Source: a plasmid. Taken from it: DNA of 64,000 nt. The stretch is taken from assembly GCF_053078305.1 (NCBI RefSeq), contig NZ_CP166875.1; one strand, 5' to 3'. Position numbers and translations under genes: made by a program. Below are positions 3,653-60,988 of this stretch, piece after piece. Position 1 is the stretch's first letter, and each line of letters opens with the position of its first letter. The notes under the pieces were generated by a model that was not told the DNA's origin, ran no database searches, and was given only the letters and a program-made list of their open reading frames with translations.

Positions 3653-3654
3653 GA

Positions 3655-5602: not shown

Positions 5603-6241
5603 ATGAACAAAAAAATATACATTTTATTCGCCCTGACAGCAGGATTGTTTCTTTCTGCCCATGCTTCGGAAAATGTGAATACGCCCGAAAATCGCCAGTT
5701 CCTGAAGCAGCAGGAAACACTGAGTCAGCAGTTGCGTGAAAAGCCGGACACACAACTGCAGGCATGGGCAGAACAGCAGGTCAGGGCGAATCCCCTTCAG
5801 CATGCCGATAACCAGTTTCTCGATGAACTGGTCCGTAAACAGCAGGCTGCTCAGAAAGACAAACCACAGCAGGGGGCCGTGTATTTTGTGTCGTTCTCCA
5901 TTCCCGAAGAGGGACTGAAACGGATGCTGGGAGAAACCAGGCACTACGGCATTCCGGCCACACTGCGGGGTATGGTGAACAATGACCTGAAGACTACCGC
6001 TGAAGCCGTGTTGTCCCTGGTAAAAGATGGCGCGACCGATGGTGTTCAGATTGACCCGACGTTGTTTTCACAGTACGGCATCCGCAGCGTGCCGGCCCTG
6101 GTGGTGTTCTGCAGCCAGGGGCACGACATCATCCGGGGAAATCTGCGCGTCAGGCAGGCGCTGGAAAAAGTGGCCGCCACGGGAGACTGCCGGCAGGTGG
6201 CTCAGGGACTGCTGGACGGCACCGGGGATAAGCTGCAATGA
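5603..6241 (+). CDS. trbC: TrbC
   Basis: ATG at 5603 preceded by aggag; 212 aa with signal peptide; size and synteny match F TrbC. Confidence 0.85.
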   Translation: MNKKIYILFALTAGLFLSAHASENVNTPENRQFLKQQETLSQQLREKPDTQLQAWAEQQVRANPLQHADNQFLDELVRKQQAAQKDKPQQGAVYFVSFSIPEEGLKRMLGETRHYGIPATLRGMVNNDLKTTAEAVLSLVKDGATDGVQIDPTLFSQYGIRSVPALVVFCSQGHDIIRGNLRVRQALEKVAATGDCRQVAQGLLDGTGDKLQ

Positions 6242-18603: not shown

Positions 18604-20802
18604 ATGAGTTTTAACGCAAAGGATATGACCCAGGGCGGTCAGATTGCGTCCATGCGTATCCGCATGTTCAGCCAGATCGCCAATATCATGCTTTACTGCC
18701 TGTTTATTTTTTTCTGGATCCTCGTTGGTCTGGTTTTATGGGTAAAAATAAGCTGGCAGACGTTTGTGAACGGCTGTATTTACTGGTGGTGCACCACGCT
18801 GGAAGGCATGCGGGATTTAATCAGGTCCCAGCCGGTCTATGAGATCCAGTATTACGGCAAAACCTTCCGGATGAACGCGGCTCAGGTACTGCATGATAAA
18901 TACATGATCTGGTGCGGTGAGCAGCTATGGTCTGCATTCGTTCTGGCGTCTGTCGTGGCCCTGGTTATCTGCCTGATCACCTTCTTTGTTGTCTCCTGGA
19001 TTCTGGGGCGTCAGGGTAAACAGCAGAGTGAAAATGAAGTCACAGGTGGTCGTCAGCTGACTGACAATCCGAAAGAGGTTGCCAGGATGCTGAAAAAAGA
19101 CGGCAAGGACTCCGATATCCGGATTGGCGATCTGCCGATTATCCGGGATTCTGAAATCCAGAATTTCTGTCTGCACGGCACGGTCGGGGCCGGTAAGTCG
19201 GAAGTTATCCGTCGTCTGGCCAACTACGCCCGTCAGCGCGGTGATATGGTGGTGATTTATGACCGATCAGGGGAATTTGTTAAAAGTTACTATGACCCGT
19301 CCATCGATAATATCCTGAATCCGCTGGATGCCCGCTGTGCCGCCTGGGATTTGTGGAAGGAGTGCCTGACACAGCCGGATTTTGATAATACGGCAAATAC
19401 CCTGATCCCGATGGGCACAAAAGAAGACCCGTTCTGGCAGGGCTCAGGACGCACCATTTTTGCGGAAGCGGCGTACCTGATGCGTAATGACCCCAACCGC
19501 AGCTACAGCAAACTGGTGGATACACTACTCTCCATCAAAATTGAAAAACTGCGTACCTTCCTGCGTAACTCACCGGCGGCCAACCTGGTGGAAGAGAAAA
19601 TCGAGAAAACGGCGATTTCCATCCGTGCTGTGCTGACCAACTACGTGAAAGCCATCCGTTACCTGCAGGGGATTGAGCATAATGGTGAGTCCTTCACCAT
19701 CCGTGACTGGATGCGGGGTGTCCGTGAAGATAAGAAAAACGGCTGGCTGTTTATTTCGTCGAATGCCGACACCCATGCTTCCCTGAAACCGGTGATCTCC
19801 ATGTGGCTGTCCATCGCCATTCGTGGCCTGATGGCGATGGGGGAGAACCGTAACCGTCGTGTGTGGTTCTTCTGTGATGAGTTACCCACGTTACACAAAC
19901 TGCCGGACCTGGTGGAGATCCTGCCGGAAGCCCGTAAGTTCGGTGGCTGTTATGTGTTCGGTATCCAGTCCTATGCCCAGCTGGAAGATATCTACGGTGA
20001 GAAATCGGCAGCCTCGCTGTTTGACGTCATGAACACCCGTGCCTTTTTCCGTTCCCCCAGCCATAAGATTGCAGAGTTCGCTGCCGGTGAAATTGGTGAG
20101 AAAGAGCACCTGAAAGCCAGCGAGCAGTATTCCTACGGTGCTGATCCGGTACGTGACGGGGTATCGACCGGTAAGGATATGGAGCGCCAGACGCTGGTCA
20201 GTTATTCCGACATTCAGTCTCTGCCGGATCTGACCTGTTATGTCACCCTGCCCGGACCGTATCCGGCAGTAAAACTCTCCCTGAAATATCAGGCACGACC
20301 GAAGGTTGCTCCGGAGTTTATTCCGCGTGACATCAATCCTGAAATGGAGAACCGTCTGAGTGCCGTACTTGCCGCAAGGGAAGCAGAAGGTCGTCAGATG
20401 GCCAGCCTCTTCGAACCGGATGTCCCGGAGGTTGTTTCCGGAGAAGACGTGACTCAGGCTGAACAGCCGCAACAGCCGCAACAGCCGCAACAGCCGCAAC
20501 AGCCGCAACAGCCGCAACAGCCGGTGTCTCCTGCCATCAACGATAAGAAGTCAGATGCAGGTGTGAATGTTCCGGCAGGGGGGATCGAGCAGGAGCTGAA
20601 AATGAAACCGGAAGAAGAGATGGAACAGCAACTGCCACCCGGGATCAGTGAATCCGGTGAAGTGGTGGATATGGCCGTTTATGAGGCATGGCAACGGGAG
20701 CAGAATCCGGATATCCAGCAGCAGATGCAGCGCCGTGAAGAGGTGAATATCAACGTGCACCGGGAGCGCGGGGAGGATGTTGAGCCGGGAGATGATTTCT
20801 GA
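18604..20802 (+). CDS. traD: TraD type IV coupling protein
   Basis: 732 aa, N-terminal TM helices, Walker [10 protein letters not shown]-terminal QQP repeats; N-terminus matches remembered F TraD. Confidence 0.92.
20464..20523. repeat. tandem 9-bp repeat (CAGCCGCAA-type, ~6 units) encoding the PQQ repeat of the TraD C-terminal tail
   Basis: Read directly from sequence. Confidence 0.9.
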
Positions 20803-23800
20803 TGTTGAGTTTCAGCGTTGTTAAATCGGCAGGCAGTGCCGGAAACTATTACACCGACAAGGATAATTACTATGTGCTGGGTAGCATGGGGGAACGCTGG
20901 GCGGGCAAGGGGGCTGAACAGCTTGGGCTGCAGGGCAGTGTTGATAAGGATGTCTTTACCCGTCTTCTGGAGGGGAAGCTGCCGGACGGGGCGGATTTAA
21001 GCCGTATGCAGGATGGCAGTAATAAGCATCGTCCCGGCTATGACCTGACCTTCTCCGCCCCCAAAAGTGTCTCCATGATGGCCATGTTAGGTGGCGATAA
21101 GCGCCTGATTGATGCACATAATCAGGCCGTGGATTTTGCTGTCCGTCAGGTGGAGGCGCTGGCTTCCACACGGGTGATGACGGACGGACAGTCAGAAACG
21201 GTACTGACCGGTAATCTGGTGATGGCACTCTTTAACCACGACACCAGTCGCGATCAGGACCCACAGTTACACACGCATGCGGTGGTGGCTAATGTCACGC
21301 AGCATAACGGCGAATGGAAGACACTGAGCAGTGATAAAGTGGGGAAAACCGGTTTTTCCGAGAACGTGCTCGCGAACCGTATTGCGTTCGGGAAAATATA
21401 TCAGAGTGAGTTACGTCAGCGCGTTGAGGCGCTGGGCTATGAAACTGAAGTGGTGGGTAAGCACGGTATGTGGGAGATGCCGGGCGTACCGGTGGAGGCC
21501 TTTTCCGGACGCTCACAGGCTATCCGGGAGGCCGTCGGGGAAGACGCCTCGCTGAAATCCCGGGATGTGGCGGCACTGGATACGCGAAAATCCAAACAGC
21601 ACGTCGATCCTGAAGTCAGAATGGCTGAATGGATGCAGACGCTGAAGGAAACCGGGTTCGACATCCGGGCGTATCGTGACGCGGCAGACCAACGGGCGGA
21701 GACCCGCACGCAGACACCCGGACCCGCTTCACAGGACGGGCCGGATGTGCAGCAGGCGGTGACACAGGCCATTGCCGGATTAAGTGAACGAAAAGTGCAG
21801 TTCACGTACACGGACGTGCTGGCCAGGACGGTCGGCATACTGCCGCCGGAAGCCGGTGTGATTGAGCGGGCGCGTGCCGGTATCGATGAGGCCATCAGCC
21901 GTGAGCAGCTTATCCCCCTCGACCGTGAGAAGGGGCTGTTCACGTCCGGGATTCATGTGCTCGATGAGCTGTCCGTCCGGGCACTCAGTCGTGACATCAT
22001 GAAACAGAACCGGGTGACTGTACATCCGGAGAAAAGTGTTCCCCGGACGGCCGGTTACAGCGATGCGGTCAGTGTTCTGGCACAGGATCGCCCGTCGCTG
22101 GCCATTGTGTCCGGGCAGGGCGGTGCAGCCGGGCAGCGTGAGCGGGTGGCTGAACTGGTCATGATGGCCCGGGAGCAGGGGCGGGAGGTGCAGATTATTG
22201 CCGCTGACCGTCGCTCACAGATGAACCTGAAGCAGGATGAACGGCTGTCCGGTGAACTGATAACCGGACGTCGTCAGCTGCTGGAAGGCATGCCCTTCAC
22301 GCCGGGCAGTACCGTTATCGTCGACCAGGGCGAAAAACTCTCCCTGAAAGAGACGTTAACCCTGCTGGACGGTGCCGCACGTCATAACGTACAGGTCCTG
22401 ATAACCGACAGCGGGCAGCGAACCGGTACAGGCAGTGCGCTGATGGCCATGAAGGATGCCGGGGTGAACATATATCGCTGGCAGGGGGGAGAGCAGCGAC
22501 CGGCAACCATCATCTGTGAACCGGACCGTAATGTCCGCTATGCCCGGCTGGCCGGAGATTTTGCGGCCAGCGTGAAAGCCGGAGAAGAGAGCGTGGCACA
22601 GGTCAGCGGAGTACGGGAACAGGCCATACTGACACAGGCCATTCGCAGTGAACTGAAAACGCAGGGCGTACTCGGGCAGAGGGAGGTGACCATGACGGTG
22701 CTGTCACCGGTCTGGCTGGACAGCCGGAGTCGTTATCTGCGGGATATGTACCGCCCGGGGATGGTGATGGAGCAGTGGAACCCGGAGACACGCAGTCATG
22801 ACCGCTATGTTATCGACCGGGTGACAGCGCAGAGTCACAGCCTGACCCTGCGGGATGCGCAGGGCGAAACGCAGGTGGTGCGTATATCCTCCCTGGACAG
22901 CAGCTGGTCGTTGTTCCGGCCGGAAAAAATACCGGTGGCAGACGGCGAGCGTCTGAGGGTGACAGGGAAAATTCCCGGACTCCGCGTCTCCGGCGGTGAC
23001 CGCCTGCAGGTGGCATCCGTCAGTGAAGATGCGATGACGGTTGTTGTGCCGGGGCGGGCTGAACCGGCCACCCTGCCTGTGAGCGATTCACCGTTCACGG
23101 CACTGAAGCTGGAGAGCGGCTGGGTGGAAACGCCCGGGCATTCCGTCAGTGACAGTGCGAAGGTTTTTGCCTCCGTCACACAGATGGCAATGGACAACGC
23201 CACCCTGAACGGTCTGGCCCGCAGCGGTCGTGATGTCCGGCTGTATTCCTCACTGGATGAAACCCGTACTGCGGAAAAACTTGCCCGTCACCCCTCCTTT
23301 ACGGTGGTTTCTGAGCAGATAAAGGCGCGTGCCGGTGAGACATTGCTGGAAACCGCTATCAGTCTGCAGAAAGCCGGGCTTCACACGCCGGCACAGCAGG
23401 CCATTCATCTGGCCCTTCCTGTGCTGGAAAGTAAAAACCTGGCCTTCAGCATGGTGGACCTGCTGACAGAGGCGAAGTCGTTTGCTGCAGAAGGAACCAG
23501 TTTTACTGAACTGGGAGGGGAAATCAATGCGCAGATAAAACGCGGTGATTTGCTGTATGTGGATGTGGCAAAAGGCTATGGCACAGGCCTGCTGGTTTCC
23601 CGTGCGTCGTATGAGGCAGAAAAGAGCATTCTTCGCCATATTCTCGAAGGTAAGGAGGCGGTCACGCCGCTGATGGAGAGGGTACCCGGCGAACTCATGG
23701 AGACACTGACGTCGGGGCAGCGTGCCGCCACCCGCATGATACTGGAAACGTCCGACCGTTTCACGGTGGTGCAGGGTTATGCCGGTGTGGGTAAGACCAC

Positions 23801-26072
23801 ACAGTTCCGGGCGGTGATGTCAGCCGTGAAGATGCTGCCGGAGAGTGAGCGTCCCCGTGTCGTGGGGCTGGGCCCCACGCACCGTGCGGTCGGTGAGATG
23901 CGCAGCGCCGGCGTGGATGCACAGACACTGGCATCCTTTCTGCATGACACGCAGCTGCAGCAGCGCAGCGGAGAAACGCCGGATTTCAGCAACACGCTGT
24001 TCCTGCTCGATGAGAGCTCTATGGTGGGCAATACCGACATGGCACGGGCATACGCCCTGATTGCGGCCGGTGGTGGTCGTGCCGTGGCCAGCGGTGACAC
24101 GGACCAGCTGCAGGCTATCGCGCCCGGTCAGCCTTTCCGTCTCCAGCAGACGCGCAGTGCTGCCGATGTGGTCATCATGAAGGAGATTGTGCGTCAGACG
24201 CCGGAACTGCGGGAGGCGGTATACAGCCTGATTAACCGGGATGTGGAAAGGGCACTGTCCGGGCTTGAGAGTGTGAAACCGTCTCAGGTGCCACGTCAGG
24301 AGGGCGCATGGGCACCGGAGCACTCCGTGACGGAGTTCAGTCACAGCCAGGAAGCGAAACTGGCAGAAGCGCAGCAGAAGGCGATGCTGAAAGGCGAGGC
24401 TTTTCCGGATGTCCCCATGACACTGTATGAAGCCATTGTCCGCGACTATACCGGCAGAACACCGGAAGCACGGGAGCAGACGCTGATTGTCACGCACCTG
24501 AATGAGGACCGGCGCGTACTGAACAGCATGATTCATGATGTACGGGAAAAGGCCGGTGAGCTGGGGAAAGAGCAGGTCATGGTGCCTGTCCTGAACACAG
24601 CGAATATACGTGACGGAGAGCTGCGTCGTCTCTCCACCTGGGAGACACATCGGGACGCACTTGCCCTGGTGGATAATGTGTATCACCGGATTGCCGGTAT
24701 CAGTAAGGATGACGGGCTGATAACCCTGGAGGATGCGGAAGGTAACACGCGGCTGATTTCGCCCCGGGAGGCGGTGGCTGAAGGTGTCACACTGTACACC
24801 CCGGACACCATCCGGGTGGGGACCGGTGACCGGATGCGCTTCACGAAGAGTGACCGGGAGCGCGGCTATGTGGCCAACAGCGTCTGGACGGTGATGGCGG
24901 TTTCCGGTGACAGTGTCACGCTTTCTGACGGACAGCAGACCCGGGTGATTCGCCCCGGCCAGGAGCAGGCAGAGCAACATATTGACCTGGCCTATGCCAT
25001 CACCGCTCACGGTGCGCAGGGGGCGAGTGAAACCTTTGCCATCGCGCTTGAAGGCACGGAAGGTAACCGGAAACAGATGGCCGGCTTTGAGTCAGCCTAT
25101 GTGGCCCTGTCGCGTATGAAGCAGCATGTGCAGGTGTACACCGATAACCGTCAGGGCTGGACGGATGCCATCAGCAAAGCCGTACAGAAAGGAACGGCCC
25201 ATGATGTGCTGGAGCCGGGGGCTGACCGGGAGGTCATGAATGCAGAGCGGTTGTTCAGTACGGCACGGGAGCTGCGGGATGTGGCAGCTGGCCGTGCTGT
25301 TCTCCGCCAGGCGGGACTGGCCGGGGGCGACAGTCCGGCACGGTTTATTGCACCGGGGCGCAAATATCCGCAGCCGTATGTGGCCCTGCCGGCTTTTGAC
25401 CGTAACGGCAAGTCCGCCGGTATCTGGCTGAACCCACTGACCACGGATGACGGAAACGGGCTGCGGGGATTCAGTGGTGAAGGCCGGGTGAAAGGCAGCG
25501 GGGATGCGCAGTTTGTGGCCCTGCAGGGCAGCCGTAACGGCGAGAGCCTGCTGGCTGATAATATGCAGGATGGTGTCTGGATTGCCCGTGATAACCCCGA
25601 CAGCGGTGTGGTGGTGAGAATCGCCGGTGAAGGTCGTCCGTGGAATCCCGGTGCCATCACCGGTGGCCGCGTGTGGGGGGATATCCCGGACAACAGCGTC
25701 CAGCCGGGGGCCGGAAACGGTGAGCCGGTCACGGCAGAGGTGCTGGCACAGCGGCAGGCTGAAGAGGACATCCGTCGTGAAACGGAACGCCGTGCGGATG
25801 AGATTGTCAGAAAAATGGCAGAGGAAAAACCTGACCAGCCGGATGGTAAAACAGAGCAGGCTGTCAGGGCTATTGCCGGGCAGGAGCAGGACAGGGCTTC
25901 GTCATCAGAACGGGAAACTGCGCTGCCGGAAAGTGTGCTGCGTGAGTCTCAACGGGTGCAGGACGCTGTCCGGGAGGTTGCCCGGGAAAATCTGCTGCAG
26001 GAGCGACTTCAGCAGATGGAGCGGGATATGGTCCGTGACCTGCAGAAAGAGAAAACCCTGGGCGGAGACTGA
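20802..26072 (+). CDS. traI: TraI relaxase/helicase
   Basis: 1756 aa; N-terminal relaxase followed by helicase domains; start overlaps traD stop by one base. Confidence 0.95.
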   Translation: MLSFSVVKSAGSAGNYYTDKDNYYVLGSMGERWAGKGAEQLGLQGSVDKDVFTRLLEGKLPDGADLSRMQDGSNKHRPGYDLTFSAPKSVSMMAMLGGDKRLIDAHNQAVDFAVRQVEALASTRVMTDGQSETVLTGNLVMALFNHDTSRDQDPQLHTHAVVANVTQHNGEWKTLSSDKVGKTGFSENVLANRIAFGKIYQSELRQRVEALGYETEVVGKHGMWEMPGVPVEAFSGRSQAIREAVGEDASLKSRDVAALDTRKSKQHVDPEVRMAEWMQTLKETGFDIRAYRDAADQRAETRTQTPGPASQDGPDVQQAVTQAIAGLSERKVQFTYTDVLARTVGILPPEAGVIERARAGIDEAISREQLIPLDREKGLFTSGIHVLDELSVRALSRDIMKQNRVTVHPEKSVPRTAGYSDAVSVLAQDRPSLAIVSGQGGAAGQRERVAELVMMAREQGREVQIIAADRRSQMNLKQDERLSGELITGRRQLLEGMPFTPGSTVIVDQGEKLSLKETLTLLDGAARHNVQVLITDSGQRTGTGSALMAMKDAGVNIYRWQGGEQRPATIICEPDRNVRYARLAGDFAASVKAGEESVAQVSGVREQAILTQAIRSELKTQGVLGQREVTMTVLSPVWLDSRSRYLRDMYRPGMVMEQWNPETRSHDRYVIDRVTAQSHSLTLRDAQGETQVVRISSLDSSWSLFRPEKIPVADGERLRVTGKIPGLRVSGGDRLQVASVSEDAMTVVVPGRAEPATLPVSDSPFTALKLESGWVETPGHSVSDSAKVFASVTQMAMDNATLNGLARSGRDVRLYSSLDETRTAEKLARHPSFTVVSEQIKARAGETLLETAISLQKAGLHTPAQQAIHLALPVLESKNLAFSMVDLLTEAKSFAAEGTSFTELGGEINAQIKRGDLLYVDVAKGYGTGLLVSRASYEAEKSILRHILEGKEAVTPLMERVPGELMETLTSGQRAATRMILETSDRFTVVQGYAGVGKTTQFRAVMSAVKMLPESERPRVVGLGPTHRAVGEMRSAGVDAQTLASFLHDTQLQQRSGETPDFSNTLFLLDESSMVGNTDMARAYALIAAGGGRAVASGDTDQLQAIAPGQPFRLQQTRSAADVVIMKEIVRQTPELREAVYSLINRDVERALSGLESVKPSQVPRQEGAWAPEHSVTEFSHSQEAKLAEAQQKAMLKGEAFPDVPMTLYEAIVRDYTGRTPEAREQTLIVTHLNEDRRVLNSMIHDVREKAGELGKEQVMVPVLNTANIRDGELRRLSTWETHRDALALVDNVYHRIAGISKDDGLITLEDAEGNTRLISPREAVAEGVTLYTPDTIRVGTGDRMRFTKSDRERGYVANSVWTVMAVSGDSVTLSDGQQTRVIRPGQEQAEQHIDLAYAITAHGAQGASETFAIALEGTEGNRKQMAGFESAYVALSRMKQHVQVYTDNRQGWTDAISKAVQKGTAHDVLEPGADREVMNAERLFSTARELRDVAAGRAVLRQAGLAGGDSPARFIAPGRKYPQPYVALPAFDRNGKSAGIWLNPLTTDDGNGLRGFSGEGRVKGSGDAQFVALQGSRNGESLLADNMQDGVWIARDNPDSGVVVRIAGEGRPWNPGAITGGRVWGDIPDNSVQPGAGNGEPVTAEVLAQRQAEEDIRRETERRADEIVRKMAEEKPDQPDGKTEQAVRAIAGQEQDRASSSERETALPESVLRESQRVQDAVREVARENLLQERLQQMERDMVRDLQKEKTLGGD

Positions 26073-31128: not shown

Positions 31129-31203
31129 ATGCCCGGAAAAGTTCAAGACTTCTTTCTGTGCTCGCTCCTTCTGCGCATTGTAAGTGCAGGATGGTGTGAC
31201 TGA
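31129..31203 (+). CDS. tap: Tap/RepA6 leader peptide coupled to repA1
   Basis: 24-aa peptide [24 protein letters not shown]; stop overlaps repA1 start region. Confidence 0.7.
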
Positions 31204-32053
31204 TCTTCAACAAACGTATTACCGCCAGGTAAAGAACCCGAATCCGGTGTTTACACCCCGTAAAGGTGCCGGAACGCTGAAGTTCTGCGAAAAACTGATG
31301 GAAAAGGCGGTGGGCTTCACCTCCCGTTTTGATTTCGCCATTCATGTGGCGCATGCCCGTTCGCGTGGTCTGCGTCGACGCATGCCACCGGTGCTGCGTC
31401 GACGGGCTATTGATGCGCTGCTGCAGGGGCTGTGTTTCCATTATGACCCGCTGGCCAACCGCGTCCAGTGTTCCATTACCACACTGGCCATTGAGTGCGG
31501 ACTGGCGACAGAGTCCGGTGCAGGAAAACTCTCCATCACCCGGGCCACCCGGGCCCTGACGTTCCTGTCAGAGCTGGGACTGATTACCTACCAGACGGAA
31601 TATGATCCGCTTATCGGGTGCTACATTCCGACCGATATCACGTTCACACCGGCGCTGTTTGCCGCCCTTGATGTGTCTGAGGATGCAGTGGCAGCTGCGC
31701 GCCGCAGCCGTGTGGTATGGGAAAACAGACAGCGCAAAAAGCAGGGGCTGGATACCCTGGGTATGGATGAGCTGATAGCGAAAGCCTGGCGTTTTGTCCG
31801 TGAGCGTTTCCGCAGTTACCAGACAGAGCTTAAGTCCCACGGCATGAAACGTGCCCGTGCGCGCCGCGATGCAGGCAGAACCCGCCAGGACATTGTCACC
31901 CTGGTGAAACGGCAGCTGACGCGTGAAATCGCGGAAGGGCGTTTCCGGGGAAGCCTGGAGGCCGTGAAGCGCGAAATCGACCGTCGTGTGAAGGAACGCA
32001 TGATAATGTCGCGTAACAACAACTACACACGGCTGGCCACTGCCTCCCCCTGA
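31196..32053 (+). CDS. repA1: RepA1 replication initiator (RepFIIA)
   Basis: GTG start at 31196; 285 aa; near-identical to remembered R100 RepA1. Confidence 0.92.
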
Positions 32054-44221: not shown

Positions 44222-46180
44222 TCAGGCGGCATCAGCCAGGTTATCGGCGCGTTCAGTGGCATCCGTCTGTGGACGTGGTGAACCCATCCAGCCAGGCACC
44301 CAGCGGTTGTCTTTCATGTGGAACTCTGCATGTTCAGCGGCATCGCCTTTCTTCATCTTCTCCGCGTCCCGTGCGGCACCGGACAGTCCGGCATCATTCA
44401 GGGCATCGATAATCTGCGGCTTTTTCAGGTGACCGAAGAAGTTTGCTTTTGTCGGCTGCCACCAGTCACGCATGTGAAAGCCGATGGCGCTCTCCAGCGA
44501 GTCCAGCGGACTGCGTGACGTGTGACCATACTCGCGGGTCTGAACGCCGTGGATGCTGCACGCGGTGCAGAAACTGAGCAGTGATAACAGCACGTCCTGG
44601 CTGAGTGACAGGAACGTCGTCATGTCCCGTGCCCATCCCTCCGGTAACAGGGCAGCAAGACGGGCTTTTTCTGCCATCATCGCCATGAATGCGGCACCGT
44701 CCTTCCCCGATGGCGCATCGCTGGTCAGCGAATAATGTTTACATTCCAGGCTGATTTGTGCTGGTTTACTGTACGCTCCGCTGCCAAACACATTCAGGCA
44801 GAGCGTCCATGCCAGCAGTGCCAGAGATTTGTCCGGTTGCTGCATGAGTGCCGCCTGGACTGCCAGCGTGCGTTCGGAAGACATTTTCGTCAGCAGTGGC
44901 AGACTGATTTCCTCCACTGACGCTTTCTCCTGCACCTGTTCCGTGCGGTCAGCGTCGTCAGTCACGTCATCTTCACTGCGCAACTGCACACCACGCTGGA
45001 CACACACATTACCGTAACGCCAGGACACCACCACGCCACTTCCGGCACGCATCTCCGGCGTCCACGCCCTGACCTTCGCCATGCAGTCAATCAGCTTCAT
45101 TTCTGCTGCCAGCAGGTCAGATTCCTCACACTGGTTTTCCAGCGCGTCGTAACGCATCATCAGTTCGTTCAGGCGTTCTTCTTCTGCCTCCGTCAGCACC
45201 GCTTCCGGCTCCGGCAGGTTGCGGTATGCCCGGGAATCTTCACGGCACTCACCGACAGGCTCCATGCGTCCGGCGCACCATTCCCAGCCTTCGGCTTCCC
45301 GAAGGTGTTCAGCGACAGCCTGGAGTTTTTCCAGCAGGGCGGCATCGAGCGCCACGCAGTCCACATAGCCACCCTCGTCATCGCTGAACAAATCAGTACG
45401 CAGTTCGTCAGGTGAGAAAGCATCAGCCCCCACGAAGCGGAATTTAGTGTTGTCCTTCACCGCCACTTCACTTTCCGTAATCAGATTGCGGATAACCCGC
45501 ACATCCGGTTTACCGCCCCATCCTGACTGGCAGGCCGCTTCAAACACCTGCACCTGACGCGCGGTGTCGTTCTCCAGCGCCAGCGCCTGACAGTGCTCGG
45601 TGGTGATGCGGTCTTCTGCCAGCGCATCGAGGATGACAGGCGCAAGGTCTGCCAGTTTCAGCATTCGCTGAACGTGGCGGGGCGAATAACCCAGCAAATC
45701 ACCGATTTGTGCAGGTGTTTTGCCTTCCTGCGCCATTGCACGGAATCCGGCAATCTGTTCGGCAGGGTGCATATCCCGACGATGACCGTTCTCGGTCATC
45801 GATGCGGCAGTCGCCAGCTCCTGCGGAATGACCTTCACACGGACAGGCCAGTCAACCTGAATGATGTCACGCTCTGCCAGCATGTTGAGTGCTGCCAGTC
45901 GGCGACCACCTGCGGCGACACCGTAACGGTCACCTGGCAGGGCATGAACAACCAGATTCTGTAACAGGCCGACACCTTTAATGGAGTCCGCCAGTTCGCT
46001 GACGGACTCCGCAGAATACGGCACCGTGCGCACATTCAGCGGAGACTTAATCAGCGAGGCCAGCGGCACGCTCACTTCCTCCGTCTGCGCCAGCAGGGCC
46101 GACAGGACTGTTTCCTGCGTTTTTGCAGGTTTACGGCTGGATTTACGCTCCGTTTTTGCCTTAGACTCTGTAACTGACAT
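44222..46180 (-). CDS. ParB-like nuclease-domain protein of the leading region
   Basis: Start at MSVTESKAK preceded by gggagg; 652 aa; ParB/Srx-like N-terminal region. Confidence 0.75.
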   Translation of the reverse strand: MSVTESKAKTERKSSRKPAKTQETVLSALLAQTEEVSVPLASLIKSPLNVRTVPYSAESVSELADSIKGVGLLQNLVVHALPGDRYGVAAGGRRLAALNMLAERDIIQVDWPVRVKVIPQELATAASMTENGHRRDMHPAEQIAGFRAMAQEGKTPAQIGDLLGYSPRHVQRMLKLADLAPVILDALAEDRITTEHCQALALENDTARQVQVFEAACQSGWGGKPDVRVIRNLITESEVAVKDNTKFRFVGADAFSPDELRTDLFSDDEGGYVDCVALDAALLEKLQAVAEHLREAEGWEWCAGRMEPVGECREDSRAYRNLPEPEAVLTEAEEERLNELMMRYDALENQCEESDLLAAEMKLIDCMAKVRAWTPEMRAGSGVVVSWRYGNVCVQRGVQLRSEDDVTDDADRTEQVQEKASVEEISLPLLTKMSSERTLAVQAALMQQPDKSLALLAWTLCLNVFGSGAYSKPAQISLECKHYSLTSDAPSGKDGAAFMAMMAEKARLAALLPEGWARDMTTFLSLSQDVLLSLLSFCTACSIHGVQTREYGHTSRSPLDSLESAIGFHMRDWWQPTKANFFGHLKKPQIIDALNDAGLSGAARDAEKMKKGDAAEHAEFHMKDNRWVPGWMGSPRPQTDATERADNLADAA

Positions 46181-46245
46181 AGTTAGTACCTCCCAAAACG
46201 GTAATAATGATTGTCTGCCGGACGCGTTCCCGTCCGGCACCTCTC

Positions 46246-53644: not shown

Positions 53645-54918
53645 TGTTTGCACTGGCTGATATCAACAGTTTCTACGCCTCATGTGAAAAAGTTTTCCGC
53701 CCGGACCTTCGCAACGAACCGGTCATCGTACTCAGCAATAACGATGGCTGTGTGATCGCGCGCAGCCCGGAGGCAAAAGCCCTTGGCATCAGAATGGGGC
53801 AGCCCTTGTTTCAGGTGAGACAAATGCGCCTGGAGAAGAAAATACATGTATTTTCCAGCAATTATGCGCTGTACCACAGCATGAGCCAACGGGTCATGGC
53901 TGTTCTGGAGTCGCTTTCTCCCGCAGTTGAGCCCTACTCAATTGATGAAATGTTTATTGATTTGCGGGGGATAAATCATTGCATCTCTCCGGAGTTTTTT
54001 GGTCATCAGCTCAGGGAACAGGTAAAGAGCTGGACAGGACTCACCATGGGGGTGGGCATTGCGCCTACAAAAACGCTGGCTAAAAGTGCACAGTGGGCAA
54101 CAAAGCAATGGCCACAGTTTTCCGGTGTGGTCGCGCTGACGGCAGAAAACCGTAATCGGATCTTGAAGCTACTGGGACTGCAGCCAGTTGGTGAGGTCTG
54201 GGGAGTAGGACACAGACTGACGGAAAAGCTGAATGCGCTGGGTATTAACACAGCACTGCAGCTGGCGCAGGCTAACACGGCATTCATCCGGAAAAACTTC
54301 AGCGTCATTCTTGAGCGTACGGTACGCGAACTCAACGGCGAGTCCTGCATATCCCTGGAAGAAGCACCACCGGCAAAACAGCAGATTGTCTGTAGTCGCA
54401 GTTTTGGTGAACGAATCACAGACAAAGATGCCATGCACCAGGCTGTTGTTCAGTATGCAGAGCGGGCCGCAGAGAAACTACGTGGGGAGCGTCAGTATTG
54501 CCGGCAGGTGACGACATTTGTACGGACATCCCCCTTTGCAGTAAAAGAACCCTGTTACAGCAATGCCGCTGTGGAAAAGCTTCCATTGCCCACACAGGAC
54601 AGCCGGGACATTATTGCCGCCGCATGCAGAGCCTTAAACCATGTCTGGCGTGAAGGGTACCGCTATATGAAGGCAGGAGTCATGCTGGCTGATTTCACAC
54701 CATCGGGTATAGCGCAGCCGGGATTATTTGATGAAATCCAGCCCCGTAAAAACAGTGAAAAGTTAATGAAAACACTCGATGAACTGAACCAGTCGGGAAA
54801 AGGGAAAGTGTGGTTTGCGGGGCGAGGAACCGCCCCTGAATGGCAAATGAAACGGGAAATGTTGAGTCAGTGTTATACAACTAAATGGCGAGATATTCCC
54901 CTGGCCAGGCTGGGTTAG
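53644..54918 (+). CDS. impB: ImpB (UmuC-like Y-family polymerase subunit)
   Basis: 424 aa starting MFALADINSFYAS. Confidence 0.9.
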   Translation: MFALADINSFYASCEKVFRPDLRNEPVIVLSNNDGCVIARSPEAKALGIRMGQPLFQVRQMRLEKKIHVFSSNYALYHSMSQRVMAVLESLSPAVEPYSIDEMFIDLRGINHCISPEFFGHQLREQVKSWTGLTMGVGIAPTKTLAKSAQWATKQWPQFSGVVALTAENRNRILKLLGLQPVGEVWGVGHRLTEKLNALGINTALQLAQANTAFIRKNFSVILERTVRELNGESCISLEEAPPAKQQIVCSRSFGERITDKDAMHQAVVQYAERAAEKLRGERQYCRQVTTFVRTSPFAVKEPCYSNAAVEKLPLPTQDSRDIIAAACRALNHVWREGYRYMKAGVMLADFTPSGIAQPGLFDEIQPRKNSEKLMKTLDELNQSGKGKVWFAGRGTAPEWQMKREMLSQCYTTKWRDIPLARLG

Positions 54919-54919
54919 T

Positions 54920-55336
54920 TCAGTCATCTCCGAACATATTTTCAGCGTTTCTTCTGGTCTGGTCTTCACCGTCATTTCTCGACAGACTCTGCTCTGTAAG
55001 AGGAGTACTGCAATCCACAGACGTATGGAGACCAGATTGTTTTTCCAGTAATTCAAGCAATTTCTTTTCAACCGAAAAAGCACCTGGTATCACGCTGGAA
55101 ATCACCTTATTAATATCATCCAGAGTCGTATTTTCTGTCAGTAACTCCGATATCAGCAAAGGAAGACGTTTATCTATAGCTGCAAACGCCGCACCAGTAA
55201 CTAACATCGCGCGCATGAAACGTCCCCGCTCCTTCAGTTTTTCATTTGCAATGAGCTCATCTGCTATCTTATCTCCTGTCCGTTCATCCGGGAAAAGTTC
55301 AAATGAGCAGCGTCTGGATTTATTTTCATCACTCAT
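54920..55336 (-). CDS. ParR/StbB-like partition adaptor
   Basis: 138-aa ORF immediately downstream of and overlapping parM. Confidence 0.5.
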   Translation of the reverse strand: MSDENKSRRCSFELFPDERTGDKIADELIANEKLKERGRFMRAMLVTGAAFAAIDKRLPLLISELLTENTTLDDINKVISSVIPGAFSVEKKLLELLEKQSGLHTSVDCSTPLTEQSLSRNDGEDQTRRNAENMFGDD

Positions 55337-56309
55337 TAGTCACACCACCTTTCATTTTTATCATTCCCATGACTAAATCAAACTGCGGGGATGAGCTCAG
55401 ATAAAAGCGCTCATCAGGAACCTTAGTCAGGTTCTTCACAGCCTCGGCCACAATTTCAGCCCCACCACCAACACACATTACATGTGTATAGTCGGTGAAA
55501 CGGCTGATGACATCATTAACTCGTTTAATAAGCAACTTCTGCCGTTCATTGATAACATTAATGATAGACTCACGCTGTTCAGCATTATAAATGCGACGGG
55601 AAAGGTAGTCAGGTTCATTACGGTGCACAATGATATTGTCAGCCTGGAATGAGCTCACTCTTGTATTAGCATGTACAGCCATCTGTTCCTTAACCCCGGA
55701 TGTAATCAGGGACACGCCGATATTCGGATCACACCAGGTTTTTGTAATCCCTGTCATTTTGCTACGAACATGCGACACATCAAGAGTTGTACCACCGAGA
55801 TCTACGATCAAAAGGGATTCATCATCCTCAAGCCCCGCAAGAACACTGAAACCAGCGGGAATACTTTCAGGAAGAACGGAAACACTGCGAATAACAAATG
55901 CATCACTCCCCTGCACCCGTACTTCACGCATCACATTTTTTTTCTTTCTTTCAATGTTTTGCTTATTTTTCTGATTGTTGGCGTCAAGGTATTCAGAGAT
56001 CGGCAATGTGACGATGACATCAACAGGCTGCGCTTTCAGGCCGGTCTGCTGTAGCGCATGCTGAATGGCCACAACATTCACATCACTGTACTGATAGCGT
56101 GTTTCAGTCGTTACGACAGCATCAGCACTTAATGGATCAAATGAAAACTTCTCGCCGTCGATCTCGTAATTAGCCGGGGCAGCATCATCCAGTAAACTAA
56201 AAGACCATTCCGGTTTAAAGCTGTTAGGGCTGATTAACGTTTTCACGTCACCATCCTCCAACCAGGCAAGTTTAATGTTGGTAGAACCATCATCAATAAA
56301 GATTTTCAT
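55329..56309 (-). CDS. parM: ParM/StbA actin-like segregation ATPase
   Basis: Start at MKIFIDDGSTNIKL; similar throughout to remembered R1 ParM. Confidence 0.85.
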   Translation of the reverse strand: MKIFIDDGSTNIKLAWLEDGDVKTLISPNSFKPEWSFSLLDDAAPANYEIDGEKFSFDPLSADAVVTTETRYQYSDVNVVAIQHALQQTGLKAQPVDVIVTLPISEYLDANNQKNKQNIERKKKNVMREVRVQGSDAFVIRSVSVLPESIPAGFSVLAGLEDDESLLIVDLGGTTLDVSHVRSKMTGITKTWCDPNIGVSLITSGVKEQMAVHANTRVSSFQADNIIVHRNEPDYLSRRIYNAEQRESIINVINERQKLLIKRVNDVISRFTDYTHVMCVGGGAEIVAEAVKNLTKVPDERFYLSSSPQFDLVMGMIKMKGGVTNE

Positions 56310-56722
56310 AACCAGTCTCCGTTGCTCATAAACAAATAGAAAAAACAAACATGCTTCATACATGCAATGTATATTTAATTATAATGAAAAAATGGTCTTT
56401 CTGAAAGGAGAAATACAACATAAAAACACGATAAATTGCATGTGCATTGTACACACAACTTTAAGACCAGAGGAAATCATAGATACAAAAACATTATGAA
56501 GGTTATATGTAATACATAAATGCAATATAAAAACATCTTTGACATCATGGTTCAGGTTAAGGGAAAAGGAATGACATGGTGAAACTGAGAGGAAAGGAAA
56601 GCGGTGACGAATCATGTCACCATAAACAGAAAGATGTCTAATGGGGACTCTTTAGGTACGTGAAGAATCCCCATAACGCATTTAAAAGACACACATCAGA
56701 TACCCTTAAGGTATCCGATAGT

Positions 56723-57031
56723 TTATTGACCTATTGCACCATCACGTTCAAGCTTCTCTCTTATAGCCTCAATAATATATGAGCTAAAATCCAGAGATGT
56801 TTTACTGGTCGCTTTAAGTTCCGCATGAGCTTCAAAATACGACAGCGGTATGGCCTTAAGATTCTTAGCCTTCGTCCTGGCAGCCACGGGACGACCTGAA
56901 ACTTCCTCTGCACCTTCATTTGGCTGAGACGGGGCTGTTGCTGTTACGGCAGAAGAAGAAGTTTGTAATCTGGCAGAATCCACCAGGTTTTTCAGTTTTT
57001 CAGCCTGTGCACTAAATTTCGCTTTGCTCAT
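56723..57031 (-). CDS. small partition adaptor downstream of parA (ParG/ParB-like)
   Basis: 102 aa with flexible N-terminus and C-terminal ribbon-helix-helix-like region. Confidence 0.45.
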   Translation of the reverse strand: MSKAKFSAQAEKLKNLVDSARLQTSSSAVTATAPSQPNEGAEEVSGRPVAARTKAKNLKAIPLSYFEAHAELKATSKTSLDFSSYIIEAIREKLERDGAIGQ

Positions 57032-57117
57032 GAGATAACCAAGGATGTTTGTTAGATACTTAAAAGATATCCATTAAAAGCCCAAAGGATACTATATGGA
57101 TACCCAATAGATACACC

Positions 57118-57762
57118 TTACTGTTTGTTATTTTCAATCAGATGATTGATTTCTTCGATCAGGGCAATAACTTCCTTACCTCCTGCCGAATAGCGCCCAT
57201 GAACAGACTCAGTGATTCCCATCCCAGTCTCAATGACATCCTCAAATTCTGCACGAGCAGAAATGCGGCTCTTCATCAGTTTCAGATGTTTGAACGATGG
57301 CAGGATTGCATCAAGCTTAGGGAATTTCTTCTTGTTAGGATTAACTTTACAGAGATACAGGTGAGCAGTTATATCGGTCCCCATGATAGAGCTGATTTCG
57401 TCCAGTACTCCATCAAAATGCATCAAACCAATACGTTCAGTCAGGGAGTCTTTTGAAGGGACAATAACGCAGTCTGCAAAGGCAATCGCAGTACGGGTAA
57501 GATCTGAGTCAAATCCCCCACAGTCAATAAGTAACGTCTTATCGCTGTTCTTGTAGGGAGTCATAATTTCGATTAACTCATCCACTGTTTTGGGTACTTT
57601 CACGGAAATTTCTTTTCCTTCAGGTCTCAGTCCCAGAATGATAGAAAGCCCGGTATGAGTATCCAGATCAACTGTATCAGACTTCATTTCACCAACAATG
57701 TTTACGGATGAAGTTGTCTTACCCACACCACCTTTGGGATGCGTATTAGCAATAACAGGCAT
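57118..57762 (-). CDS. parA: ParA/ParF-type Walker partition ATPase
   Basis: Start at MPVIANTHPKGGVGKTT preceded by ggaga; deviant Walker A. Confidence 0.85.
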   Translation of the reverse strand: MPVIANTHPKGGVGKTTSSVNIVGEMKSDTVDLDTHTGLSIILGLRPEGKEISVKVPKTVDELIEIMTPYKNSDKTLLIDCGGFDSDLTRTAIAFADCVIVPSKDSLTERIGLMHFDGVLDEISSIMGTDITAHLYLCKVNPNKKKFPKLDAILPSFKHLKLMKSRISARAEFEDVIETGMGITESVHGRYSAGGKEVIALIEEINHLIENNKQ

Positions 57763-57942
57763 AGTGTATCTCCAGAATCCACATGTAATACCCATAAAGA
57801 ACCCCCAAAGACACCTTTCGGATATCCAAGAGGTACTCAATAGATGTTTTTTTACTCTATACCGGTCCTGCATGTCAACAGAATATGAAATACCGATAAT
57901 ATATCCATGAGATATCCGAAAGGGATTTAAAAAAGTCAGAGC

Positions 57943-58722
57943 TTAAGGAATTCTTTTGAGCATAGACACCGCATCGGACTCAGGCATCGAAAACTGCACC
58001 CGGTGCCGTGCAGCCACATCCAGCGCAAACACCTTCGTGTAGACCTCTGTTGAGCTGATGGACTTATGCCCCATCAGGCTCTGCAGGACCTTCAGTGGTA
58101 TACCGGCATACAGCATGTGCATCGCATAGGAATGGCGGAACGTATGTGGAGTGACCGGGACAGAAAACGTCACACCATCAGCGGCAGCGGCGGCAACCGC
58201 TTCCCCAATCCAAGTCCTGGCCGTTCTGTCCGTCACTTCCCAGATCCGCGCTTTCTCTGTCCTGCCTGTTCGTTTATTACGCCGTTCCATGGGGATTTTC
58301 AGTGTGGCCATCATCGTCTGCAGCTGGCTGACGTACTGGTGATCTGAGAGCGGAACCAGGCGGTGTGTCTGCGCACCGGCTGCCGGACGTCCTGCCGTTC
58401 TGCCGGCTTTTTCCGTTCGCTGCTTGAGGGTCGCCAGCTGGACGAACGGGTAGGGAGATGTCAACTGAAAGTCATTCCGGGTCAGGGCCAGCGCTTCATT
58501 AATACGCGCGCCGGTGTTCCATAAAGTGGCCAGCAGCATTTTTCGGTGAAGGTCGGGCACGTAGTGGAGCAGGGCGCTGATTTCGGGCGCCAGCAGGTAT
58601 TTCGGCAGTTCGTCCTGAACGAGGGCCATCTGGCGCAGGGCCAGCGCCGCAGGGTAGTCGATGGCTACCGGCAACTGAGCAGTTGTCAACGAAACACCCT
58701 GACCTGGAACTGTCGGCATCAT
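57943..58722 (-). CDS. tyrosine site-specific recombinase (multimer-resolution type)
   Basis: 259 aa with catalytic-region motifs HTFRHSYA and Y. Confidence 0.85.
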   Translation of the reverse strand: MMPTVPGQGVSLTTAQLPVAIDYPAALALRQMALVQDELPKYLLAPEISALLHYVPDLHRKMLLATLWNTGARINEALALTRNDFQLTSPYPFVQLATLKQRTEKAGRTAGRPAAGAQTHRLVPLSDHQYVSQLQTMMATLKIPMERRNKRTGRTEKARIWEVTDRTARTWIGEAVAAAAADGVTFSVPVTPHTFRHSYAMHMLYAGIPLKVLQSLMGHKSISSTEVYTKVFALDVAARHRVQFSMPESDAVSMLKRIP

Positions 58723-60121: not shown

Positions 60122-60379
60122 ATGGATGAAGAAAGGGTGTTTTCACTCAGCTATGAACAACTGACCCGGTTTGCGGAAAAACGCATCCGGGAATGCAATC
60201 TGGACAGCCAGGGCGCGATTTATCTCTGCGAGTCAGCCAAAGCCGGAGCCGTGCTGATCTTCTGGCATGAACTGGCCATAAATGGCTATGCCTCAATGAA
60301 TGCCATAAAGAGACAGGAGCTCATTGACGCCGACTTTCAGCGCCTCAGAAACCTCATCTGGCCGGAGAATGACAGGTAA
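60122..60379 (+). CDS. hypothetical protein
   Basis: 85-aa ORF whose stop overlaps next gene start. Confidence 0.4.
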   Translation: MDEERVFSLSYEQLTRFAEKRIRECNLDSQGAIYLCESAKAGAVLIFWHELAINGYASMNAIKRQELIDADFQRLRNLIWPENDR

Positions 60380-60969
60380 TGACCCAAAGCCGCCGACCGT
60401 CGCCACTGCAGCGGAGAGTGCTGATTGTGCTGGCTGCCCTTGATGAAAAACGGCCAGGCCCCGTGCTGACGCGGGACCTGGAACGGGTGCTGGAGCGAAG
60501 CGGGGAAGCCCCGGTCTACGGGCCAAACCTGCGCGCCTCCTGCCGTCGTCTGGAGGATGCCGGCTGGCTGCGTACCCTGCGCGCTCCGAACCTGCAGCTG
60601 GCAGTGGAGCTGACGGACGCCGGCCGGGCCGTGGCACAGCCTCTGCTGCTGGCAGAACAGGACCGCCTCCGGGCAGAACAGCGTGCGGCAGAAGTCGTCG
60701 TACTGCCGCTGATCCCGGCAGCAGGTCTGCCCGCAGACGGCACTTCTGCCACTGATCTGGCGGTGGAGCTGAACGGCATAACGTATCAGGCCTGCCGTGG
60801 GGATTTTGTGGTGCGTCTCGACGGCAGCACCTGTCTGCAGTTATGGAATAAAGAAGGCAGGGTGGTACGCCGGGAGGGCGATCCGCTGGAAGTGGCGCAG
60901 TGGCTGCAGGCCTGTCATGACGCAGGAATAGAAGTTCGCGTACAGATAAATGAAAGTGCCGCTCCGTAA
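60379..60969 (+). CDS. hypothetical GC-rich protein, possible winged-helix N-domain
   Basis: 196 aa; markedly GC-rich codon usage; overlap with upstream ORF. Confidence 0.45.
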   Translation: MTQSRRPSPLQRRVLIVLAALDEKRPGPVLTRDLERVLERSGEAPVYGPNLRASCRRLEDAGWLRTLRAPNLQLAVELTDAGRAVAQPLLLAEQDRLRAEQRAAEVVVLPLIPAAGLPADGTSATDLAVELNGITYQACRGDFVVRLDGSTCLQLWNKEGRVVRREGDPLEVAQWLQACHDAGIEVRVQINESAAP

Positions 60970-60988
60970 GAACACGCCTGTGCACGGT

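Follow-up and report, generated by a model that had tools for sequence, protein, structure and literature searches.

Results

Genes of the locus

The DNA analysed here, called the window, is a whole stretch of 64 kb from an IncFII/IncI1-like mosaic plasmid (NZ_CP166875.1). The genes considered are as follows.

54920..55336, minus strand: stbB/parR, centromere-binding adaptor, 138 aa (Pfam Plasmid_stab_B, 7.6e-28)
55329..56309, minus strand: parM, actin-like segregation ATPase, 326 aa (Pfam StbA_N, 5e-82; ParM_N, 2.5e-72)
56723..57031, minus strand: yegA, 102-aa partner protein, presumed centromere-binding protein (conserved family)
57118..57762, minus strand: parA (named yefA in R64), small Walker-type partition ATPase, 214 aa (Pfam AAA_31, MipZ and CbiA)
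57943..58722, minus strand: resD-type tyrosine recombinase, presumed to act in multimer resolution (Pfam Phage_integrase, 1.7e-18)

An ORF check of the window placed stbB, parM, yegA and parA on the minus strand with these limits, and the four ORFs agree with the RefSeq gene calls in near-identical plasmids, R64 included. The gene block is resD–parA(yefA)–yegA–parM–stbB, and the layout is identical in the reference IncI1 plasmid R64. A preliminary description of this DNA had read the region as two different partition cassettes that follow each other on the same strand, a type II ParMR module and a small ParA with its small partner. The ORFs and the Pfam matches confirm this reading. The same description had named the lack of key catalytic residues in one of the ATPases as a ground for rejecting it; the motifs of ParM and ParA are both intact, as described below.

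The parM-stbB cassette

ParM aligns end to end with the R1 ParM structures at about 55% identity (E 6e-104). In the alignment with R1 ParM, the nucleotide-binding motifs FIDDGSTNIKL, PESIPAG, DLGGTTLD and GGGAE are kept. The stbB gene lies directly downstream of parM, with an 8-nt overlap with the parM stop, and residues 1-83 of StbB match pB171 ParR (2jd3, E 2e-6). An actin-fold ParM with intact motifs, followed immediately by a ParR-type adaptor, points to a type II cassette. Three further features were predicted around it.

56330..56545, minus strand: candidate parC, T-rich repeats flanking the parM promoter (repeat families; weak)
56378..56405, minus strand: σ70-like parM-stbB promoter, TTCAGA-16-TATAAT (promoter scan, 10 of 12 matches; consensus match only)
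56602..56622, minus strand: terminator-like hairpin between the two cassettes (terminator scan; consensus match only)

In the candidate parC, TGTTTTTRT copies are found at 56420-56428, 56485-56493 and 56527-56535, and related copies lie downstream of the -10 element. Only four TGTTTTTRT sites occur in the window, and three of them fall here, on one strand and just upstream of the parM promoter. Furthermore, T-rich ATTTTTC iterons surround the parM promoters of two relatives (L009 and L010). The candidate is nevertheless a weak one, because the surrounding DNA is AT-rich: the GC content of 56300-56750 is 0.30-0.37, as compared with about 0.43-0.46 in the flanking genes. In this AT-rich DNA, a repeat search resolved no regular iteron array within the candidate.

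The cassette resembles R1/R100 ParMRC in the full-length identity of ParM, in its identical nucleotide-binding motifs, in the order of parM then parR, and in the AT-rich upstream region with a promoter. In contrast, the StbB adaptor is only distantly related (the Pfam family match and the 2jd3 match given above). Moreover, R1 possesses ten 11-bp parC iterons, whereas no such set is evident here and only the T-rich repeats are seen.

ParA (YefA)

ParA does not possess an N-terminal DNA-binding domain, and its Walker A motif starts at residue 10. The deviant Walker A (KGGVGKT), A' (TVDLD) and Walker B (LLIDCGG) motifs are invariant across the relatives, including residues K10, G11, G12, G14, K15, D32, D34 and D80. 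The size (about 200-220 aa for type Ib) and the motifs (KGGxxK[ST], A' and B) are those of type Ib, to which we assign ParA from its sequence. The protein matches the NCBIfam ParA_partition model over its full length (positions 1-202 of 203, E 1.6e-14). The score of 53.9 bits is below the curated cut-off of 180 for this equivalog (NF041546), as are those of the pB171-type ParA (117 bits) and the pESBL ParA (156 bits). ParA is a divergent relative of NF041546 and stands outside that equivalog. The single PDB sequence match was a weak one to SegA (7dut, E 8e-4), and some of the ParA relatives are annotated as MipZ.

The dN values of ParA against its relatives were 0.09-0.28, and synonymous sites were saturated. 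Because dS was saturated for most pairs, only dN and a qualitative conclusion were used: between lineages, ParA has experienced strong purifying selection. In relatives, the parA cassette lies directly beside a RepB replicon, and such a position is the usual one for a partition operon. The resD gene travels with the ParA cassette: the ResD/ParA identities to the relatives are 86/84, 82/82, 76/63 and 43/45%.

YegA

The yegA gene starts 86 bp downstream of parA and is kept in all five loci compared. Its family is conserved and comprises 77 clusters, and the last 45 aa, at the C-terminus, are nearly invariant. No Pfam or NCBIfam domain was found in YegA, and a Pfam search at E <= 10 over 20 family members gave only weak DUF3950 matches. 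In annotations, YegA is often mislabelled as "GroEL".

In the AF2 model of full-length YegA (pLDDT 65), an N-terminal helix is followed by a disordered linker and then by a C-terminal extended segment and two helices. No significant PDB match was obtained with this model or with that of a C-terminal "single-chain dimer" joined by a linker (pLDDT 62), and an RHH fold of YegA was not confirmed. The arrangement is similar to that of TP228 ParF/ParG and other type Ib systems of the RHH type, in which a small ParA is paired with a small partner that has a flexible N-terminus and a C-terminal strand-helix-helix-like segment. In contrast, there is no significant sequence or profile similarity to ParF/ParG: ParF was absent from the PDB search matches, and hhalign of the YegA family against ParG was not significant (E 0.69).

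Box arrays of the ParA cassette

Boxes of the near-palindromic form GGATATCY, strictly in 11-bp register, make up three arrays: one upstream of parA, one in the parA-yegA gap and one downstream of yegA.

57786..57917, minus strand: upstream array flanking the parA promoter, boxes starting at 57917, 57906, 57838, 57827, 57816 and 57793 (PWM and spacing)
57873-57878 (-35, TTGACA) and 57849-57854 (-10, TAAAAA), minus strand: predicted parA promoter, 18-nt spacer
57033..57120, minus strand: parA/yegA intergenic array, eight consecutive 11-bp units, seven of the eight ending in ATC
56630..56722, minus strand: downstream array, three strong boxes and about five degenerate 11-bp units (PWM and 11-bp chopping)

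The strong downstream boxes GGATACCT, GGGTATCT and GTGTGTCT start at 56716, 56705 and 56694, respectively. A plain count of GGWTATC over the window was enriched yet scattered, and the informative test was that of the 11-bp spacing. Same-strand PWM pairs exactly 11 bp apart number nine in the 64 kb, eight of which lie inside 56698-57917; in a Markov simulation, 0.34 pairs were expected and the maximum was three. The PWM was trained on these array regions, and the spacing was outside the training.

Relatives whose ParA is 63–84% identical show the same layout of three arrays. By sequence reading, the TTGACA-18-TAAAAA promoter is kept in L005 and L006, and a close version is present in L007. The position of the intergenic array is filled in L005-L008. 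Homologous downstream arrays are found in L005-L007, and the array here is shorter and more degenerate than theirs. Spacings that are multiples of 11 account for 27 of 39 pairs in the Pectobacterium locus, 49 of 60 in Salmonella and 30 of 30 in Pantoea. In a relative with 45%-identical ParA, the box core becomes GGAWWTCC and the 11-bp register is retained. The box core co-varies with the protein lineage. Since parM is absent beside the cassette in the Pantoea and pECAZ161_KPC loci, the arrays belong to the ParA cassette.

With these arrays, the cassette possesses the repeats of a type Ib system, and we infer that YegA binds the boxes. The preliminary description had pointed to 57763-57940 as a place where iterons should be sought, and the phased boxes of the upstream array (57786-57917) are indeed there. 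It had also suggested that the AT-rich DNA at 56320..56700 may hold a centromere, and that iterons be sought there too. The AT-richness was borne out, and the downstream array lies at 56630-56722. As the best centromere candidate, however, the gap as a whole gives way to the better supported arrays at 57786-57917, 57033-57120 and 56630-56722; the rest of it (about 56330-56545) offers only the weaker T-rich candidate parC.

Distribution of the gene block

The block is present in about 1,075 PLSDB plasmids (>=95% identity), and both cassettes are kept in 1,075 of about 1,145 carriers of the ParA cassette in PLSDB. The near-identity of more than 1,000 IncI1 plasmids is due to their recent common descent and is not independent evidence of selection. 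The pairing had been called unusual in the preliminary description. This does not hold, given that R64 and these plasmids carry the same block and that double loci of types Ib and II are a known design. To call the two cassettes redundant, as was also done there, is an assumption.

Discussion

A probable tandem double partition locus

We consider it likely that 54920-57762 represents part of the maintenance region of R64-type IncI1 plasmids, namely its tandem double partition locus, in which a type II cassette and a type Ib cassette, with activities that are predicted, lie side by side. In the searchable literature, no functional work was found on the R64-type locus, its ParA cassette or its ParM cassette, and a search for yefA/yegA gave unrelated papers only.

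In 2001, Ebersbach and Gerdes reportedly gave the first description of such a locus, the double par locus of pB171 with par1 (ParMRC) and par2 (type Ib ParABC). As a stand-in for pB171 itself, we compared a pB171-type locus (L011, CP091396), which was reached via the 2jd3 ParR sequence. The two loci are alike in that type II and type Ib cassettes lie within about 3 kb, that a 214-aa ParA is paired with a small partner and with repeat arrays both upstream and downstream of parAB, and that a resD-type integrase, 91% identical to resD here, adjoins them. In contrast, ParA is only 19% identical and ParM 37%, and the partners share no detectable similarity. The cassettes of the pB171-type locus are divergent with only the parC1 region between them, whereas those described here follow one another in the same direction; each has an upstream region of its own, and the terminator-like hairpin separates them. 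As repeat units, the pB171 type has short TATGAA/GTGATG-like sequences, whereas the present locus has 11-bp-phased GGATATCY boxes. Judged from these sequence comparisons, the R64-type locus is an analogue, not an orthologue, of the pB171 double par locus.

Another system for comparison is that of pESBL, an IncI plasmid in which a type Ib ParABS occupies the impB-adjacent slot and for which partition has been proven experimentally (Daniel et al. 2020, PMC7602700). The IncI backbone, the impB-adjacent position, the small ParA (208 aa), the repeat arrays that flank the operon on either side and a partner of about 100 aa without a recognisable domain are common to both. However, the ParA proteins are only 24% identical, and the pESBL repeat is the octamer GATAACAA as opposed to GGATATCY at 11-bp spacing. 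Moreover, the pESBL operon is co-directional with impCAB, and pESBL has no annotated ParM cassette. For pESBL, it has been shown that loss is masked when plasmid-free cells are killed and when the plasmid is transferred back.

Alternative explanations

That one cassette does the work, and the other is a host- or condition-specific back-up or a decaying passenger, is unlikely, if a possibility to be taken seriously. The partition of pESBL is explained by one type Ib ParAB, and Tn-seq found only that region of about 1 kb (PMC7602700). Similarly, a 2026 census states that, of the two par systems of SCP1, only one is important in the laboratory (PMC13245405). In the present locus, the downstream array is shorter than those of relatives, and the ParM cassettes beside this ParA lineage have been freely swapped (52% and 39% identity). 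Against this, all four ORFs are intact with their catalytic motifs preserved, selection on ParA between lineages is strongly purifying, and the carriers of the ParA cassette nearly always keep both cassettes together.

We think it rather improbable that the pairing was never selected and that the adjacency is a by-product of ResD/rfsF-type recombination or of cointegrate formation, by which the maintenance modules of different replicons were joined. In relatives, resD and parA are separated by a RepB replicon that is missing here and in R64, a 91%-identical resD adjoins the non-orthologous pB171-type double locus, and a third type of ParAB fills the slot in pESBL. The window itself is a mosaic, and rfsF-ResD-associated exchange has been reported among IncI1, IncR and IncFII plasmids (PMC9412624). 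A search of the window for an rfsF/dif-like core gave no match at <=3 mismatches, a result that is uninformative. Such an account of the origin is, however, compatible with function. The pairing of types Ib and II beside resD arose at least twice (pB171 type and R64 type), and this recurrence hints at an advantage. Furthermore, the 2026 census cites pB171 and pINV among plasmids with two types of partition system, and the title cited there calls both pINV systems functional (PMC13245405).

It is very improbable that parA-yegA encodes a ParA-like ATPase and a small DNA-binding regulator that serve a purpose other than partition, for instance in controlling transcription or in positioning for conjugation: no domain is recognised in YegA, ParA is divergent and below the family cut-off with some relatives labelled MipZ, and the boxes overlap the promoter as those of a regulator might, but multi-site arrays upstream and downstream are the signature of a type Ib centromere (pB171, pSM19035 and pESBL; PMC7602700), the cassette adjoins replicons and resolution genes, and no other par-like cassette is annotated within the 8.6 kb examined around the pECAZ161_KPC relative.

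Proposed mechanism

For the double partition locus, we propose the following model. YegA would bind the GGATATCY boxes of all three arrays, and boxes at every 11 bp would place it on roughly one face of the helix. The upstream array would serve as an autoregulatory operator. Together, the three arrays would form a partition complex; by stimulating ParA-ATP on the nucleoid, this complex would space the plasmids evenly. In the type II cassette, by analogy with R1, StbB/ParR dimers would coat the iterons around the parM promoter; this coating would repress the operon and form the complex that caps ParM filaments, and the capped filaments would push sister plasmids apart. The adjacent ResD recombinase would resolve multimers. 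Because the downstream array is about 300 bp from the parM promoter, it could couple the regulation of the two cassettes, as in pB171.

Significance

Only the small partner of the ParA cassette and its binding sites seem to be uncharacterised. We suggest tentatively that YefA/YegA may represent an uncharacterised type Ib lineage, with a partner that is invisible to Pfam and NCBIfam and a centromere made up of three arrays of 8-bp boxes at 11-bp spacing, including one within the operon. Since YegA is unrecognisable, the lineage may be overlooked by censuses that are based on homology and demand an identifiable ParB. The 2026 census counted 971 PLSDB plasmids with a type I RHH-ParB and a type II system, and no IncI1 accessions were matched in those of its supplements that were searched (PMC13245405). 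If the suggestion is true, about 1,000 IncI1-type plasmids would be scored as single-system plasmids while carrying two.

Our understanding of partition would be unchanged, with one further member added to known classes. In the searched literature, the only characterised IncI partition system was that of the pESBL type. Among the records retrieved, the R64-type backbone is far commoner than the pESBL type, and it carries a different ParA cassette together with a ParM cassette. The definition of the YegA box may provide targets for incompatibility-based curing, stability assays and corrections of annotation (the GroEL label and swapped type labels). Among the major vehicles of ESBL and AmpC resistance genes in E. 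coli and Salmonella are the IncI1 plasmids, which rely on maintenance modules to persist.

Organization of the locus and integrity of the ATPases

The locus has five genes, all encoded on the minus strand (54.9-58.7 kb) and listed here in the order of transcription:

57943-58722, minus strand: resD-type tyrosine recombinase (Pfam assigns recombinase)
57118-57762, minus strand: parA, small ParA (Pfam AAA_31, MipZ and CbiA)
56723-57031, minus strand: yegA, 102-aa ORF
55329-56309, minus strand: parM (Pfam StbA_N, 5e-82; ParM_N, 2.5e-72)
54920-55336, minus strand: stbB/parR (Pfam Plasmid_stab_B, 7.6e-28)

The preliminary description had read the last four genes as two different partition systems in tandem. 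Its coordinates are correct and agree with the RefSeq calls in near-identical plasmids, and Pfam assigns the ParM/StbB pair and the small ParA, though not the partner downstream of ParA. Judged from the anatomy, the two-system reading is well supported. The catalytic residues, whose loss had been named as an argument against this reading, were checked and are conserved in both ATPases. ParM aligned over its full length with R1 ParM structures (E 6e-104, approximately 55% identity) and keeps the phosphate-binding and connect motifs. ParA possesses the deviant Walker A (KGGVGKT), A′ (TVDLD) and Walker B (LLIDCGG) motifs, which are invariant in an alignment reaching relatives of 24% identity. Its alignment to the NCBIfam ParA_partition model spans 1-202 of 203 positions (E 1.6e-14), with a score well under the curated cut-off, and the sole match in a PDB sequence search was a weak one to archaeal SegA. 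R64-type ParA is a divergent ParA. It is under purifying selection: dN values against relatives were 0.09-0.28, with synonymous sites saturated.

The stbB (minus) and impB (plus) genes are convergent, and 1 nt separates their stop codons (54918-54920), leaving no space for a terminator. The last 163 bp of stbB (54920-55082) was found alone and unannotated, at 98.8% identity, in many IncF plasmids from E. coli, Klebsiella and Salmonella; these solitary ends look like remnants of the present ParM cassette.

Distribution and plasmid background

Side-by-side partition systems had been regarded as unusual. This is wrong: hundreds of IncI1-family plasmids match the 3.2-kb stretch at 99.4-99.6% identity, and 1,075 PLSDB records contain at least 80% of it in a single piece. 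The ParA cassette alone is found in approximately 1,145 records and the ParM cassette in approximately 1,078. In R64, the reference IncI1 plasmid, the order resD-ParA-hypothetical-ParM-StbB, convergent with impBAC, is identical, and the ParA protein accession is shared. R64-style annotations name the genes resD, yefA, yegA, parA and parB. They swap the partition types (LC567055, 3221-6063): "type I parA/parB" is used for parM/stbB, whereas the yefA product, a Walker ParA, is given as "type II". R64-style annotations also label a large leading-region ParB/Spo0J-like protein (yfhA; window 44222-46240) as a partitioning protein.

The left part of the window (1-35000) contains F-type traD (18604-20802), traI (20802-26072, 1756 aa) and traX, together with IncFII repA (approximately 31184-32053). 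The right part (40000-63200) is IncI1/R64-like leading and stability DNA, approximately 94% identical overall and 99.6% over the par block. The window is thus a mosaic plasmid. According to one paper, IncI1 segments have passed into IncFII and IncR plasmids in association with rfsF-ResD (PMC9412624). GC content peaks at 0.61-0.69 at 60293-60985, in ydeA/ydfA-like ORFs, against 0.40-0.55 in the surrounding backbone.

Phased boxes around the ParA operon

GGATATC-like boxes surround the ParA operon when the minus strand is read. A PWM refined on the window locus and three relatives gave the consensus GGATATCY (near palindrome GGATATCC), and high-scoring boxes form three arrays:

57917, 57906, 57838, 57827, 57816 and 57793 (box starts), minus strand: upstream array, flanking the parA promoter
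57116, 57105, 57072, 57061 and 57040 (box starts), minus strand: intergenic array, parA to yegA
56716, 56705 and 56694 (box starts), minus strand: downstream array, past yegA

The upstream array was found in 57763-57940, one of the two segments proposed for an iteron search. It brackets a putative parA promoter (TTGACA-18-TAAAAA), both hexamers of which are conserved in relatives. Boxes lie 11 bp, or close to a multiple of 11 bp, apart. The 64-kb window contains nine pairs of same-strand PWM hits at a distance of exactly 11 bp; eight pairs lie in the ParA locus, against a mean of 0.34 and a maximum of 3 in a first-order Markov simulation; the PWM training set included the array regions themselves, but spacing was not used in training. 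When chopped into 11-mers, the 86-bp parA-yegA spacer forms eight consecutive units, seven of which end in ATC. Approximately five further degenerate 11-bp units belong to the downstream array.

Between the two cassettes, the DNA is AT-rich (GC 0.30-0.37), and these features were located in its minus strand:

56622-56602, minus strand: terminator-like hairpin, separating the two cassettes
56405-56378, minus strand: σ70-like promoter (TTCAGA-16-TATAAT), 69 nt 5′ of the parM start codon

T-rich repeats flank the putative parM promoter. The window has four TGTTTTTRT sites, three of which lie within the 110 bp directly upstream. Relatives with 64-66% ParM identity have T-rich ATTTTTC iterons around their promoters. 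The repeats are compatible with a parC, although a weak candidate because the DNA is AT-rich. The proposal of a centromere at 56320-56700 needs correction: the best-supported centromere-like sequences are the three box arrays, just one of which lies in the gap, and the remainder of the gap holds the weaker T-rich candidate.

The partner protein and relatives of the ParA cassette

YegA (102 aa) matched no Pfam or NCBIfam model. Its family comprises at least 77 clusters, and the C-terminal approximately 45 residues are almost invariant. In many NCBI records these approximately 100-aa proteins are named "molecular chaperone GroEL", an obvious misannotation. In the AlphaFold2 model, a disordered linker joins an N-terminal helix (4-19, with the invariant R21 region) to an extended segment, which is followed by two helices (65-75 and 82-97). 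Other type Ib partners are ribbon-helix-helix proteins with a flexible N-terminal tail, and the predicted order of elements in YegA would fit such a protein.

A yegA homologue lies immediately 3′ of parA in all four relatives compared.

ParA identity of the relatives
Pectobacterium pPAR01: 84%
Salmonella pCFSAN024441_02: 82%
Pantoea pPAT9B05: 63%
E. coli pECAZ161_KPC: 45%

In the first three, PWM hits occupy the upstream, intergenic and downstream positions as in the window, and spacings are multiples of 11 in 27 of 39 pairs (Pectobacterium), 49 of 60 (Salmonella) and 30 of 30 (Pantoea). Because parM is not adjacent in the Pantoea and pECAZ161_KPC loci, the arrays are to be assigned to the ParA cassette rather than to ParR. 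pECAZ161_KPC retains the 11-bp register, with the core GGAWWTCC in eight boxes versus one of window type; in the other loci this ratio is reversed. A shift of this kind would be predicted were the boxes read by the partner protein.

Evolution of the block

Identities of resD and ParA to the relatives run in step (86/84, 82/82, 76/63 and 43/45%), whereas adjacent ParM cassettes are far more divergent (52% and 39%). Therefore, resD-parA-yegA behaves as a single old unit beside which ParM cassettes have been exchanged. Classically, a partition operon lies beside a replicon. In the Pectobacterium (3466-3800) and Salmonella (3464-3800) loci, a RepB-family replicon separates resD from parA and carries five approximately 22-bp TTATGAAAGTGACCGC-like iterons; its absence from that place in the window and R64 suggests that what survives as the IncI1 block was once part of an older rep-par unit.

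Between the ParA and ParM cassettes, the same two loci have a LexA-box-like TACTGT-N8-ACAGT (approximately 5900-5960 in Pectobacterium; 6987-7030 in Salmonella), with umuD/C remnants in the former and complete umuDC in the latter. The error-prone polymerase operon therefore changes place within the block.

The DNA beside the highly conserved resD or impB serves as a slot for non-orthologous partition cassettes in different plasmids. Its occupants are the R64-type tandem double locus, the pB171-type divergent double locus (CP091396, 1936-5393) and the pESBL/IncR-type single ParAB (pESBL locus, 1-2394).

Comparison with known partition loci

The pB171-type locus was reached through the 2jd3 ParR sequence. 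Its adjoining resD is 91% identical to that of the window, whereas its ParA is 19% identical, its ParM 37% identical and its ParB unrelated; by eye, the order of elements predicted for YegA resembles the C-terminus of this ParB. Its cassettes are divergent with just a 228-bp parC1 region between them, in contrast to the tandem cassettes of the window. In the IncI plasmid pESBL, one type Ib ParAB alone adjoins impB, with a ParA 24% identical to ours and repeats that are GATAACAA octamers; this ParA type occurs in approximately 1,360 plasmids. The ParAB is the experimentally proven partition system of pESBL (PMC7602700).

Double loci of type I plus type II are established, with pB171, R27 and pINV cited as examples in a 2026 census (PMC13245405). 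The census counted 971 PLSDB plasmids with a type-I RHH-ParB plus type II and required a recognisable ParB (PMC13245405). Because 971 is near the 977 records with pB171-type ParR at 95-99% identity, and because of that requirement, the census may omit the R64-type locus. No functional work on R64-type cassettes turned up in the literature searched; a correlation between instability and large deletions covering them is given in one preprint.

The locus has long been annotated as a backbone feature and is analogous, rather than orthologous, to the pB171 design. The new content is modest: the YefA/YegA cassette can be defined, on sequence grounds, as a putative divergent type Ib system whose GGATATCY boxes form three 11-bp-phased arrays.
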